DNA of 24,665 nt from Bdellovibrionales bacterium (lineage in GTDB: Bacteria; Bdellovibrionota; Bdellovibrionia; Bdellovibrionales; UBA1609). Location of the stretch: the NCBI GenBank assembly GCA_050246815.1, contig JBFWVI010000044.1, positions 1-24,665 on the forward strand, given 5' to 3'. Shown one piece after another: positions 6,001-12,000 of the stretch. Position numbers: made by a program. Positions within the stretch are counted from its first letter, which is position 1. The number at the start of each line of letters is the position of its first letter.

Positions 6001-9000
6001 CACAGCACCCATGTCTTGCTCCCATTCCAGTCGGGCCATAGGTGTATAATTGCTCAGAACACCATTTAAAGTACTTTGGCTGGGCGCTCGCCAACCATAA
6101 TTGGGCACAAGCTTTGTGGCTAATAGGTAATTCACATTTATACTTGGCGTAATAACGGGATCAGCGCCATTGAATCCCACAACATCCCAGCGGGTCCCCT
6201 GTGGCATGCTCACTGCCCCTGAGAAGCGTTGATTGCCGGCAATACTCACGGTGGCTGCACCCGATTTTGAGCCCGAAGCATTAAAGGGCGCACTGCCGTT
6301 TTCAACCACCACGCGTACGCGGTAGCGGCCGTTAGACCAAAGCTGCACATGAAAAACGGCGCGCAGACTTGAATCGCCAGAGAAAGAACTCATGTACTGA
6401 AATGAAGCATAGTAGGGCCCCGCCTGCTCGGTAAGAACTCGAGCCGATGTGCCGAGCAGCGCTGAAAGATTAACGGTGCCATAGCTGCCATAACTCACAG
6501 AAGCCGAAGGGTTGAGCGCTATCAAATTGCTTTCATTCAACGGTGTTGCGGCGGCCACTGAAGCAATAGAAATGGTTAAAGTTCGAGGGGTGTTGGCAGC
6601 AAGATCAATGAGGCCAGAAATTACGCCATGTTTCAGACTGCCGTCATCCCAAGTTGAAATTGGTAAAATTTGTGTGGCGCTGGCATCGAGAGCGAGACCT
6701 TGACCGGCAGGAACATCACCTTTGCGAAACACATGGCCAGTAGAAAATGGCAAACTAACTCCGCCCACAGCACTTGTAAGACTAAAGCTAGCTACCGGTG
6801 CGCCTAAGACCGGAGGGCGAGTGATGGAAATTCTTACGGGATTTGATATTATTTTTGCCATATTTTTCCTGGTCTCCGAATTACAGTTTAAAAAAGGCGG
6901 GGCGTGCATTTGGGCCTGTGCAAGTAACAAACCCGCGAATTACGCCATCATCAACATAACCAAATCTTCCCCAGATTCCTTGACCCGACCAATTCGGATT
7001 TTCGACATTGTCGCCACCGCCTGTAACCTGTGTCCAATTCCAAGTGTCGGTTAGGTTGGTCGGAGGGGTGCAAAAGTAAAGAGTGTTCGAAGGTCCGCCC
7101 ACCACAAACCGCGAATTCATTTTATCCCAGGTCACGCCATGACTGCCCCCTGGCGGAGATGCTCCCGACGTTTTAAGCGTAATAAAAGCGGACGTGGAAA
7201 GATTCGAAACATCGGCAGCGCGCAAATAGCCAGTGTTGTCACCGGTGTGCAGAAGAACCCACTTTTTTGTCGGTGAGTGAGCCGCTGCTTGCCGGTCGCT
7301 GTATGAGCTGGGTGAATTGCTGGCTTCATTCACGTGTGACCAGGTGCGTGTTACAAAATCAAACGCAGCAAAACGATAGCGGCTGCCTTCCCAACAAATG
7401 GCTCGATTGTTGACGGAATCATAGACCACAACTTTGCCGGTGATTTCGGCAAAAAAACTTGGCGCCACTGTATTTGGATCCGGATAATCCGGATTTCTTT
7501 TCCAAACTAAAGCGTTGCCATTGGGCGCTGGATTATTAAAATCAAACGAATGCGAATAGTTCGACGAGCTACCGTCCTGCGAAAGACGAGCCCCTGTCAC
7601 TGCTGAAAAAAGTTCGTTGGTACCAGGGGCATATATGATGGATTGATAGGTGTGGCGAGAGTTCGGAGTGCCATCTGGGTTTTGACTGGTACTATAAGAG
7701 GGATTGGAATATGCATCGCGAACACGGAACCATGTGGGCGTGTTGTCACGCAATTTGAACAGCACCACTTCGTTGCCGCCATAAGCATTGTGGCCGCCAC
7801 CCCAAACCCCAAGTGAAGCTCCCAAATGCAGATTGCCATTGCGATCATAAAAGCTTTTGTTATTGATATAGCCGCCTGAATAACTGAATAAAGCAGTAGA
7901 TGTAACTTCTGAACAATTTGCTGCATCACCCGAAAGCTTCATGGGTCCGATGCCTGTCATAAATGATGAGCCGAGATTTTTCCAAGTGCCACTCGCCTGA
8001 GCATTGTACCAGGCGGGAGCGCCGCTTACGACTCCGCCCACCTTTATGGTAACCGGACCACTTATGATCTTGCTCATTGCATTTACCCTAAAAGCCCATT
8101 GGCCCGAAAGAAGTTGATGTGTCGATCTTGATTCAATTTTATATTGTTGAGGTGCAATTTTAACTAACGAATTTACGATGGCAACATATGCAACCGACTG
8201 TAGAATCTCATTTTGAGACTCAATACTGTGTGCTGTAAACCTGGTCGAACGACATGCTGGCGATTTCTTCCTTCACGTCGTTCACATAATTTAGAAGTTC
8301 AGTCAAACTAACTTAAAATCAGTTATGAGTGATTGAAATGACGATAGGTTTTCAAAATGAGACACTTGAACTCGAATTGACTCGATTAAAAATCTCAAAC
8401 GAAGACAGTTTGAGTTCTTTCTTCAAATCATGCAGAAATAACCGATAATGAATGAGTGGGTAAAGCCTTGAGATTTAAAACATTTTCAATATTTATTTCG
8501 CTCGCGCTGCTTTCGTATTTTTATGTCAATTGCAGTGGGCAAGGCGCAAAATTTGGTTCTTCGGGCCGCCCCGTTAGTCCTACCGCCTCTGTCGATAGCG
8601 ATGGGAATGGCCAAGGCTATGGCGGTAAAATAAAAGACGGCCAGTTTAGACGTCAATACACGGATTATAAATGTGAACAAAAGCCTCTTGGTTTACAGGG
8701 GCTACTTCAGGTTGCGGCTGGAAATTTATTTTTGACCCTCGATAGCTGCGTGGACTTCTCCTATGAGATTGGCAATAGTGATTCCAGAGTTGATTTTTTA
8801 CCTTACAACCAAGATTTTATCGGGTTTAATCACGCCTTCTATGAACGGCAAGATCCAGCGCAACCGTCGGCGCTCATTTCAGAGGCATGGTGCAGGTGGA
8901 CACAGTCCAATCGGGGCGTCGATGCAGTGGTTCGCATCAATCCCTCGGGCCCTGTAACGGCTCAAATCTATTTGGGCTCATCACAAGATGCGTTTGTTTG

Positions 9001-12000
9001 GGACTCACGCCTAGTCGCGCCCACTGTTGTTCAGCGAACAACGAGCGCGAGTGGTTACTCGTATGTAAACAGTGCGATTCATTTGCAAATTAATTCTGCG
9101 ATGAATGCGAATGGCAAATTTCAGGGTCACCTGCGGGCCAATGTTGACGGTGTAGATTACGATATGAACGTCGACTGCCGAATGATGCAAATGGCGCCGG
9201 TTCTACCTGTCGTCACACCTAGCCTGATCGGCTTATGGCAGATGAACGGGCCACTGGGCGTTGTGCCCGCAAATATCATCGATCTGAGTGGCATGAATAA
9301 TAATGGTGTTTCGGTGGATTCGGGATCGAGTATGGTTTATCAGGCGGGTATTTTGTCTGAAAGTATTCGATTTGTAGATAACGATGATGCGATCTCCGTG
9401 CCACCTTCACCGTCACTTAATAACTTAACAGAATTGAGTGTGTCGGCATGGGTTCGTGGTGATCCCGATCCGACTGTGACGAACGCTGTAAATGGCGGCA
9501 GTATCTTATGGAAAGGCCAATCAACACCGACGGGGACAGATCCCACTACGCTTGATTTGTCGTCGGGTTGGTATTTTGGTATCCCAGCTCAGTCGGGACG
9601 ACTTGAATTTAAAGTCGCCTATTCGGGCAGCACCATGCACTCGTTGACAAACCCGAGTGTGTTACGGATTTTCCCGGGGCAATGGCATCATGTGGCGGTA
9701 ACGTGGAACGGCGCGGCTGCGGCCTCTGGTGTTCGCTTTTATATTGATGGTCAACTGGCCACGCCGGATACGCCGACAGTTGGCGGGGTAGGCTCACGTC
9801 TTTCAGATGTCGCAAATAGTATGAAAATGGGATTCTACTCAGACAATCTCTATAATACCTTTCGCGGAAATTTGGATCAGGTCCAGATATGGAATCGCGT
9901 ATTGACCGCAGCCGAAATCAACGATCTTTTCAATTCAGGAACAGTTCTGCCTTAAGTATGAAAACGCAATCTGAAGCTTTAGAGTTTCTAGACGACCTTG
10001 AAGCAAAATGGCGAAAGGGCAACACACAAGTCGTGACGCAAACGCTGAAAGACTTGGGCCCGAACAGTGTTCCGAGGCCGCTTTTAGCAAGGCTTGCGAA
10101 AATCGGATTCCGGGCGGGACAACCGCGTTTTGCGATCAAGCTGCTAAATCAAGTTGTCAGAATTCATACGTCATCCGAGCCCCATTGCTCAAACGAAGAA
10201 TTGGCGATTTATGCGCTTTCTCAGATGGAGATCGGGGTCTACAAAGAGGCCATTCATCTTTTTACATCGATGGATCATAAAGAATTCCCAGAAGCCGATT
10301 TTTACTTGGCGCTAACGCTATTTAAATTGTGGAACTACGAAGAAGCGATTTCAGTCTTATCAAGATATGTATCGTCACCTCAAATTACTGATTATCAAAG
10401 ACTGGTGGGCAACGTGAATTTGGCAGCGGCCTACATCACGGAAAGACATTTTGAGCAGGCCCGGTCGCTTTTAGATAAAATCAGAATTGAAGCTGAACAA
10501 AAGCAACATCTACTTTTACTCGGCAATATATCTGAGCTCACAAGCCAGCTGTGCTTTTATGAGAAGCGCTACGATGAGGCGCGTGATTATTTGGCGCAAG
10601 CCAAAGCGGTGTTGAGTGACAACAACCAGCTTTATGCACTTTTTGTAGAAAAATGGTTGTCTATAACAGACCTTATGGAGTTCGGGCCGGATCACAAGCG
10701 ATTGCAGCGATTGGAGGCTGTCCGAAAGGAATCCCTAAGAATGAAGCATTGGTCATCCGTGCGTGAGTGTGACCTGTTTTTATCGCTTGCGACATCGGAT
10801 CAAGAATTATTTAAAAAAATTTATTACGGGACTCCAATTGCAGGCTACCGTTCGCGAATGTTGCGGCTGTTTAATATTTCAGAGGCCCAATTGGAGAAAG
10901 AGTACAACTGGTGCCCACAGGGCTCACCGTTGTCAAAAAAATTATTGCTCGATGTCGAAAGAGGTATTGCCGTAAAAAGCGGGGTCAAGTTAAAAAAAGA
11001 TCAGCTGCCGCACCGGCTATTAAAAATTCTTTGTTCAGACTTTTATGCTCCCTTCAAACCAGAGGAGTTGTTTTCGCTACTGTTTGATAATGAAAAATTC
11101 AACACCGAAACTTCGGTGGCGCGAGTTTACAATGGAGTGAGCGCATTAAAAGCGTGGCTGCAGCAGTCGAAGCTGCCCGTGCAAATCGTGAATGAAGAAA
11201 GCGGTTATCAGATACAAGTGCTGCGCCCCTGCGTGCTGCATGTTTCTTTGAAAGTCTCATAATAAGATTCTCAAGCCAAATTCAGCAGTTGCCACCTTAA
11301 ATTCGTTAGTTAAATACCAATCGTATTAACAGTAGATTGGAATCTAAGGGGCGAAGCATGAAAAATATTATCTTCGCATTATTATTGGTGCCGATGTGGG
11401 CAGAGGCCGCGACGATCAAATCTGCAAGAACAAAAATTACTGTTGTCGCAGTCAATCAAAACTCCGTGTTGGCCATGAAAGCTCAGCAGCTCCAGCCCGG
11501 CCAGTGGGTAACGCTCAATAAGGCGGGGGATGGAGCCGGTTTTGACTATAGTTTTATTGAATCCTGTCAGCCCACGGGCTGCTTTGACACGATATTGAAT
11601 TATGCCGACAAAGGATTCTGGCTGCCCACTCTCAAAGAGATCCACTTTTTAGGCAAGGGTCATATTGCTGAACATAAATATGTTCATTACAGCGAGGCTA
11701 CGAATAAGTGGATAACAGATCCAAGACCCGCATGGGCCTGTGGCCAGGTGGCAAACTGCTATGGTATGGGCCATGGCTTTGAGCACAGCGCAGCGAATCC
11801 TTTGAACGGAGATTTCTATGCCCGCATTCAAAGTTCGAGCGTGGTTTACAAACTCAATCGAGCCACAGGCGTTTGGTCGCAGCTTCCTGCCGCACCCACG
11901 CTCGAGGTCGCCATTGCGATTGAATATTTTCCCGAGCTGGGTGGTCTGTTGATGATTGGAACCACCGGAAGTGAAAGTTCGGGTCAGGCTCACCTTTATC

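Follow-up and report, generated by a model that had tools for sequence, protein, structure and literature searches.

Intracellular peptide receptors of the TPR type are on record from Gram-positive bacteria and from the mobile elements of these bacteria. In the cCF10/PrgX type of Enterococcus, a lipoprotein precursor is the source of the pheromone and a TPR-type regulator is its receptor, and both features would recur in the locus described here. The Enterococcus pheromone is derived from the signal peptide before the cysteine, whereas here the peptide tag lies behind the cysteine and the two genes are adjacent. According to an excerpt of PMC10075063, the RRNPP signature consists of a Sec-secreted propeptide of 10–100 aa, a receptor of 250–500 aa with TPRs, and adjacency of their genes. 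The RNPP rule, as given in an excerpt of PMC3601957, is that an asparagine anchors the peptide backbone. In diderm filamentous cyanobacteria, exported PatX is cleaved by PatP and a hexapeptide binds HetR (excerpt of PMC12756182). That system, which also includes HetN and PatS, is like the present one in its diderm host, its cytoplasmic transcription factor and the periplasmic cut of an exported precursor that is proposed here, and in HetN that system's own motif lies within a larger protein (same excerpt), much as the tag does here. In contrast, PatX has 56 aa and a different motif, and HetR is one master regulator, whereas here a paralogous TPR family is matched one-to-one with adjacent precursors.

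The window was a stretch of 24,665 nucleotides from a Bdellovibrionales bacterium (contig JBFWVI010000044.1). It holds a gene for an exported partner, P0001, followed by a gene for a regulator, P0002, both where a preliminary description had placed them (Table 1). That description had the two genes overlapping. The P0002 start at 9958 lies 2 bases past the P0001 stop and agrees with the starts of aligned paralogues, and with this start the 67-base overlap is gone. By this sequence comparison, the overlap is a start-call artefact.

Table 1. Coordinates of the partner and regulator genes and their parts in the window.
Feature	Position	Strand	Basis or remark
Partner lipoprotein P0001, 499 aa: signal peptide, then tag-bearing flexible linker, beta domain and LamG domain	8456..9955	+	
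Signal peptide ending YVNC; Cys26 is the likely lipid anchor	8456..8533	+	Sequence and paralogue alignment; probable lipobox
Peptide tag GNGQGYGGK, residues 50–58 of P0001	8603..8629	+	Non-regular, low-confidence segment of model
Undescribed beta domain, ~190 aa, conserved cysteines	8630..9190	+	Common to all four partners in this genome
LamG / concanavalin A-like domain (PF13385), variable cargo	9380..9922	+	E 4.5e-21
Regulator P0002, 434 aa, cytoplasmic TPR + winged helix	9958..11262	+	
TPR solenoid of P0002, residues 4–304: eight helix pairs and capping helix	9967..10869	+	
Asn154 codon of P0002, candidate peptide-backbone anchor	10417..10419	+	Conservation
Winged helix-turn-helix of P0002, residues 330–430, OmpR/PhoB-like topology	10945..11247	+	Model secondary structure

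The cassette was compared with RRNPP(A) systems (Rap/Phr, NprR/NprX, PlcR/PapR, Rgg/SHP, PrgX and AimR/AimP). The likeness lies in adjacent genes (neighbours in 4/4 loci of this genome), a cytoplasmic TPR protein of about 430–530 aa beside an exported protein with a short conserved peptide, a similar TPR superhelix, and a conserved Asn on a first helix. P0002 is within the receptor size range; its relatives, mostly 480–530 aa, are at the limit or slightly above. As for Sec secretion, a hydrophobic N-terminus and a lipobox-like Cys were found by our own hydropathy rule. In contrast to RRNPP(A), the host is diderm, the peptide is part of the N-terminal region of cargo that is large, diverse and for the most part lipid-anchored, instead of a small propeptide, and the winged helices are C-terminal, behind the TPRs, whereas RRNPP transcription factors have an N-terminal HTH. 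With its large cargo and C-terminal DNA-binding domains, the cassette falls outside RRNPP; the earlier term RRNPP-like is apt for neighbour genes, TPRs and receptor size, but not for the precursor or the HTH. MalT-type regulators have the same order of a sensor repeat and a C-terminal DNA-binding domain, and domain III of MalT gave a weak sequence match to the regulator (E 0.0018). MalT/LAL (STAND) proteins have an N-terminal NTPase; in P0002 no family match to an NTPase domain was obtained and the TPR helices begin at residue 4. The winged helix also differs from the LuxR-type domain, and MalT is without a tagged partner gene.

P0002 matched Pfam TPR_19 (E 3e-10). Its winged helix had no Pfam match, and its Atlas neighbours carry PF00486. 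It is without a hydrophobic segment (maximum 19-residue hydropathy 0.8). A second C-terminal winged helix, missing from P0002, is present in most relatives and missing in 7 of 109 aligned members. The structure model reached a pLDDT of 95.9 (93 had been given before), and of the ten top Foldseek rows seven were again Rap proteins (E 4e-5 to 1.8e-4; Rap TMq 0.43–0.51). The further claim that the TPR part folds most like Rap/Phr was not borne out: fold-comparison Z scores were 18.8 for APPBP2, 18.6 for NprR, 18.2 for LGN, 17.8 for Rap and 16.8 for MalT domain III. Judged on the model, the Rap-likeness is a tie among peptide-binding TPRs. The best structural neighbours all hold short peptides in the TPR groove. 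In a sequence search with the regulator, no Rap, NprR or PlcR was among the best 60 of 72 matches at E 1.

Polar residues are conserved along the first helix of successive TPR repeats. Asn154, which belongs to the fifth helix pair, lies on its first helix and may correspond to RapF Asn227, is present in 96 of 100 aligned members. It was found in 72/72 partnered and 18/22 partnerless regulators (nominal p 0.0024), a contrast that is the best of ~430 columns, fails multiple-testing correction and uses groups partly set by eye. Conservation and model together make a peptide-binding groove in the TPR domain plausible. A complex prediction of TPR residues 1–320 (109 aligned rows) with a tag fragment of 34 residues (39 aligned rows) scored 0.01 with controls not folded, and counts neither for nor against binding.

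The genome has exactly four full-length regulators, each directly next to an exported protein, as the preliminary description had stated. The partner lies upstream on the same strand on contig C44, divergent on C84 and C13, and downstream and overlapping on C93. The four partners are homologous, sharing a ~200-residue domain that starts right behind the tag (E 3e-40, 1e-23 and 8e-9), and the 4/4 pairing therefore represents one family, not four independent events. The LamG domain is missing from the C93 paralogue, and the paralogues have FQNC where P0001 has YVNC. Matches to Pfam Toxin_R_bind_N in two partners were read as fold cross-matches, since they overlap the LamG domain.

Across the family, 65 of 113 regulator loci reached 11 bits in leave-one-out scoring. 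Two were Gly/Tyr-rich false positives by eye, which leaves 63/113 loci where an exported protein with the tag lies within 2.5 kb of the regulator, mostly within 250 bases; this count is partly circular because the motif model was trained on the same loci. In the genome of the window, 3,164 other ORFs have a hydrophobic N-terminus and are not partners; 1 of them scored as tagged. The earlier counts of 23 of 53 loci and 17 aligned peptides refer to a different set of loci. The gene pairing is real and far beyond chance. About 40% of regulator loci showed no partner.

The partners have several kinds of body, of which the beta domain of P0001 is one. In its second half this domain is similar to small beta barrels; the best VIA Z was 9.2, with no Foldseek match at E 0.001 and no clear fold or Atlas match. 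It occurs in 17 of 301 genomes, all within the 56 that have the regulator. Scored partners, one false positive apart, are 134–977 aa long. The same hydropathy rule, which is not a signal-peptide predictor, placed most partners in the lipoprotein class, as described earlier, but 8 of 68 have no Cys behind the hydrophobic stretch. The fetched loci yielded no small dedicated propeptide, and no credible exported ORF in them ended within 75 residues after a tag.

The core of the tag across the family is G-[ND]-G-x-[GPSAT]-[YFIVH]-x-G. The stricter G-N-G-x-x-Y-x-G-K, previously given as conserved in the partners of this genome, occurs in one of the four and in 16 of 68 pairs; the remaining three tags are NNGDGYMGK, NNGGSYEGK and PNQDGYLGK. 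The terminal Lys, thought invariant, is present in 31/68 pairs. The 56 tagged partners formed 26 BLAST clusters and 17 jackhmmer clusters. By sequence comparison, at least 17 protein bodies that are unrelated to one another carry the tag, and selection acts on it at the protein level. A DNA-level explanation was rejected because all synonymous codons occur in the tag. A calcium loop of the Dx[DN]xDG type (DSDGNG in P0001) was ruled out by eye, the upstream acidic residues not being conserved.

Past the signal peptide, conservation always begins with the tag, 1–36 residues from the Cys, and the tag also stands right behind signal peptides without Cys. In P0001 it lies outside the folded domain (model pLDDT ~50). 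In the largest partner family (30/56) it immediately precedes the conserved domain, and the dipeptides Asn-Gly and Asp-Gly often occur in turns, as would suit a structural cap, a linker or a general export mark, with adjacency reflecting a regulator co-inherited with its target gene. This explanation is highly improbable: the same tag type recurs on unrelated bodies, tagged ORFs are rare elsewhere in the genome, model confidence over the tag is low, and the beta domain also exists untagged. Copies of that domain distant from the regulator can lose the tag (the second copy of L130, L193 and L196).

In a converse test, 40 stretches were fetched around tag-coding DNA matches irrespective of the regulator. 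The match lay in a lipoprotein N-terminus in 22, of which 15 had a regulator within ~4 kb (12 new to the first list); the regulator was in 0 of the remaining 18. The other 7 of the 22 had none in the stretch fetched, and these orphans sit in regulator-rich genomes. In 20 genomes without a full-length regulator, none of the 25 tag matches fell within the N-terminus of a lipoprotein (22 were fetched, one borderline; 3 contain an in-frame stop). The unrelated bodies, the converse test and the co-occurrence across genomes give good support, at the sequence level, to a functional tie of the tag with the regulator, and stronger support than the preliminary description had offered. The regulator family is present in 56 of 301 genomes of the phylum and comprises at least 2,171 sequence clusters, with taxonomy taken from the Atlas and source names. 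A mobile-element origin found no support, single-protein queries having had no match in viral contigs, plasmids or phages.

The preferred reading, at a probability of roughly 45%, is a two-gene peptide-sensing cassette in which the tag is a TPR ligand, freed after export and then taken up again. From the observed pairing, the body-independent tag conservation and the domain anatomy, we infer binding, processing, uptake and a DNA target as follows. The partner would be exported via Sec and mostly lipid-anchored. An envelope protease may cut the octapeptide tag from the N-terminal linker, and an oligopeptide ABC transporter may bring it back. The tag would dock in the concave TPR groove, where Asn154 and nearby Trp, Lys, Arg and Asp are predicted to hold it. 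Docking would switch how the winged helix or helices at the C-terminus bind DNA. The most likely target is a promoter shared with the partner gene; a divergent arrangement is seen in 41 of the 68 scored pairs. Surface-protein turnover would thereby feed back on its own synthesis. The palindrome GTCTCA-N3-TGAGAC was ruled out as the operator despite its enrichment upstream of partners; perfect sites number 17, 17, 13 and 21 in genomes G048, G064, G072 and G099, which are without the regulator, and the palindrome is nearly absent in the regulator-rich family f15.

Release and uptake were weighed on several points. Counted in favour were tandem tags (L015 and L027), the flexible tag segment, the peptide-binding neighbours, family-5 solute-binding proteins (seven matches in the genome) and the PatX precedent. 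Counted against were the large cargo, the partnerless loci, the unpaired tagged lipoproteins and a weak correlation of tag similarity with TPR similarity (Spearman 0.15, p 0.017, without correction for phylogeny), with paralogue tags within one genome closely alike. No cleavage site was evident near the tag in paired partners, where the flanks are not conserved, and no protease or transporter recurred among 521 ORFs neighbouring regulators; both were also counted against. Two cuts would be awkward in three partners because the tag is 1–3 residues from the lipid Cys.

A linked protease or transporter would be unnecessary if the TPR domain read the tag on the unexported precursor or its cytoplasmic breakdown products and tuned the partner gene, with neither release nor uptake. 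Such export-monitoring feedback also agrees with the tag being first past the signal peptide, with or without Cys, and with large unrelated cargo in place of a small propeptide. A precedent is offered by TPR chaperones of type III secretion, which grip their cargo at an N-terminal motif and also co-regulate transcription. However, Sec precursors are short-lived, and tandem tags and orphan tagged lipoproteins suit a diffusible signal at least equally. Export monitoring is unlikely, though the most probable of the rivals. Still less probable is indirect coupling, in which an unlinked third protein (a membrane transducer, protease or sorting factor) reads the tag outside the cytoplasm and either this protein or some other ligand is bound by the TPR domain. 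The different final compartments of tag and regulator agree with it, as do the many protein partners of TPR domains and the fold score of MalT domain III, which is no peptide receptor. Against it, the tag is limited to regulator-bearing genomes and is mostly in the adjacent gene, and a third gene recurs across loci in one clade of 7 loci only.

In the main texts of open-licence PubMed Central and bioRxiv, no relevant paper on peptide signalling in Bdellovibrionota or on this cassette was found. The sequences point to an undescribed DNA-binding family, paired with exported proteins whose sole common part is a short glycine-rich tag, and to an unstudied peptide switch. As the preferred reading would have it, an independent diderm counterpart with its ligand inside surface lipoproteins would extend the TPR peptide-receptor principle. 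If the precursor is sensed, the export of a protein would be coupled to its own transcription in a new way. It is possible, with the odds somewhat against it, that a portable eight-residue tag on any exported cargo is read directly by the neighbouring, dedicated TPR–winged-helix regulator, either as unexported precursor, in a gene-specific export monitor, or as a turnover fragment of the surface protein. This would be a new kind of signalling logic with an origin independent of RRNPP, and Bdellovibrionota would then have a major layer of regulation that has so far gone unrecognised.

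The partner lipoprotein in the window began with a hydrophobic N-terminus ending in YVNC, which by sequence makes Cys26 the probable lipid cysteine. The tag, GNGQGYGGK, occupied residues 50–58; it was a low-confidence coil in the structure model, and the fold began directly behind it. The regulator had no membrane segment. Apart from generic repeats and LamG, neither protein matched a Pfam or NCBIfam family. The overlap of the two genes in the preliminary description stemmed from a longer ORF starting at 9889; the start at 9958 aligned with those of the paralogues.

Features of the pair and its surroundings (window positions unless stated)
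Feature	Position	Strand	Remark
Partner gene	8456-9955	+	499 aa
LamG domain	partner residues 309-489		unannotated region between tag and LamG
Regulator gene	ATG at 9958	+	2 bases past partner stop; 434 aa
Eight helix pairs and cap	regulator residues 4-304		model
Winged-helix topology	regulator residues 330-430		model
Palindrome GTCTCA-N3-TGAGAC	8205-8219		weaker copies near 8349 and 8392
Second tag	2111-3364	-
Second tag	11337-12449	+
Second tag	12455-13795	+
Second tag, looser forms	3-1364, 3776-4825, 4909-6930, 6881-8077
Second tag elsewhere in own genome	C84:8701, C13:22703, C64, C89		contigs

The own genome had exactly four full-length regulators, each adjoining an exported partner (4/4), as claimed earlier, but about 200 residues behind the tag were homologous among the partners, which therefore count as one family. 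The other three tags were NNGDGYMGK, NNGGSYEGK, and PNQDGYLGK; the earlier strict motif G-N-G-x-x-Y-x-G-K matched only the window copy and was too narrow. The partner on contig C13 scored just 9.7 bits on the leave-one-out tag profile. The own genome alone would allow a dull reading, in which a domain simply begins with the tag; the relatives' loci remove it.

Within the phylum, 56 of 301 genomes carried the regulator, and a profile search gave partial and weak matches only in 16 more. The protein library held 2,171 regulator clusters at E 1e-30, and the nearest Atlas clusters were Bdellovibrionota. Sister families of this phylum joined TPRs to Trans_reg_C or DeoR-type domains (Atlas clusters; weak matches in genomes G239, G281, G278, G286, and G299). 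A total of 109 of 125 non-own matches were fetched, those left out being mostly weak or at contig edges, which with the four own loci gave 113. A locus counted as paired if, within 2.5 kb, it had an ORF whose N-terminus was hydrophobic and whose tag scored at least 11 bits (leave-one-out profile). Of 65 passing loci, two were Gly/Tyr-rich false positives, leaving 63/113, a partly circular count since the profile was trained on these same loci. In the own-genome background, 5 of 3,168 such ORFs reached 11 bits, four of them the partners.

The tag columns among 68 pairs were G 56, N/D 62, G 64, variable, G 42, Y 48, variable, G 67, and K 31; the lysine was thus not invariant, contrary to the earlier statement. 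Every synonymous codon was used in the tag. The 220 residues behind it in 56 partners fell into 26 BLAST or 17 jackhmmer clusters, with LamG, Kelch, fibronectin III, beta helix, GLUG, and Ig-like domains among the cargo. The cysteine lay 1–36 residues before the tag in 60 partners and was missing in 8. Copies of the partner beta domain not adjoining a regulator can lose the tag. At L172 (G262:C3), an intact tagged partner stood beside a regulator split into two ORFs.

The least circular support for the pairing is the converse test. The tag DNA pattern had 143 matches in 55 regulator-bearing genomes. Ten genomes with many matches were picked, and all their matches outside the earlier loci were fetched (40 stretches). 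Inspection by eye placed 22 in the N-terminus of a lipoprotein. A regulator was found within the 3-kb flank in 13 of these, at 2.9 kb in one more when a longer stretch was fetched, and about 4 kb from a cluster of partner paralogues in one further case; 12 of the regulators were absent from the first list. The remaining 7/22 were orphans, and the other 18 stretches held no regulator. At L146 and L122 (G200:C2), tagged lipoproteins, nearly identical and about 570 aa long, stood in a tandem array about 4 kb from one regulator. Twenty genomes without a full-length regulator had 25 matches, 3 with an in-frame stop; among the 22 fetched, none lay in a lipoprotein N-terminus, with one borderline (L188). 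The partner beta domain occurred in 17/301 genomes, all among the 56; some of these positives are self-hits, which does not apply to the 245 negatives, and no p-value is attached because the genomes are related. Tag similarity tracked TPR similarity weakly. An absence of any coupling between tag and regulator seems very improbable.

The regulator model had a pLDDT of 95.9 (109-sequence alignment). Most relatives carried a second C-terminal winged helix, missing in 7/109 including the window regulator. Rap proteins filled 7 of the 10 top Foldseek rows, as reported earlier, mixed with designed TPRs and OGT (TM-scores 0.43–0.51). The argument for a Rap-like fold was too strong: a wider search was a tie (Z-scores: APPBP2 18.8, NprR 18.6, LGN 18.2, Rap 17.8, MalT domain III 16.8), and therefore the modelled fold points to a large TPR solenoid of the peptide-binding kind and does not single out Rap. 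First helices of TPR pairs line the concave groove. Going along the model from pair to pair, the conserved polar residues (R52, Y85, W125, Y146, N154, N190, K232, W233, E266 (consensus), R269, and D272) sat within the first helix or at its end. Asn154 occurred in 72/72 partnered and 18/22 partnerless regulators, the top column, not significant after correction. RNPP proteins use an Asn to anchor the backbone of the peptide, according to an excerpt of PMC3601957.

The tag's reader must match it in conservation and narrow distribution. No third gene recurred across loci beyond one clade, which leaves the neighbouring TPR protein as the sole candidate reader in view; indirect coupling is improbable. 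In that clade (L016, L019, L026, L039, L069, L072, and L078), a conserved third secreted gene lay directly 3' of the partner, without a Pfam match in three tested, and partners mostly lacked the lipid cysteine. Direct binding of the tag by the putative groove is preferred (probability about 0.7).

On the likeliest route, itself somewhat doubtful, the partner would be exported, the tag released and taken up again, and then bound by the cytoplasmic regulator. A diderm precedent for release and re-uptake is PatX, PatP, and HetR (excerpt of PMC12756182), the own genome had seven family-5 solute-binding protein matches, and tandem tags in loci L015 and L027 fit this route. It is opposed by the absence of a small propeptide, of conserved cleavage flanks, and of any protease or transporter linked to the pair, and by tags that lie 1–3 residues from the lipid anchor. 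All of these would be accommodated if the regulator sensed the precursor before its export, which is the less likely route.

The partner gene is suggested as the regulator's target because 41/68 scored pairs were divergent (10-bit threshold, three false positives included). An operator was sought and none was found. The strong palindrome was rejected, as it probably belongs to another, order-wide factor: with spacing 3 the own genome had 19 perfect and 50 one-mismatch sites vs 0–1 and 1–6 at other spacings, 40/69 being intergenic and many upstream of exported proteins, and it was found across the order with or without the regulator. It is likely the box of some global regulator; a literature search on it gave nothing relevant.

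The pair sits in a cluster of secreted carbohydrate-related genes (3–13795; apiosidase-like, beta helix, polysaccharide lyase-like, and Kelch), which are possible targets. Secreted glycan-active and Kelch proteins carried a second tag at the N-terminus, approximately [ILF]-K-S-x-P-T-x-[IL]-x-V, directly behind the signal peptide or, where that was absent, at the very start. Its pattern had 13 N-terminal matches, 12 plausible, and none deeper inside ORFs; none was seen in the relatives' loci.

In an open-licence literature search of main texts, no description of the pair was found. The association is real and large, and apparently undescribed. The idea of a peptide-sensing pair survives with better support, its binding step and route being predicted. 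Compared with the five-point RRNPP signature (excerpt of PMC10075063), the pair agrees in receptor size, TPRs, and adjacency and differs in the small propeptide, and the DNA-binding domains sit at the opposite end of the receptor as well. For the secretion point, what the partners show is a hydrophobic N-terminus, mostly of lipoprotein type. If release and uptake hold, it would work as an RRNPP pair does, yet it is not an RRNPP member. Tentatively, the pair may represent a novel type of monitor for export or turnover.
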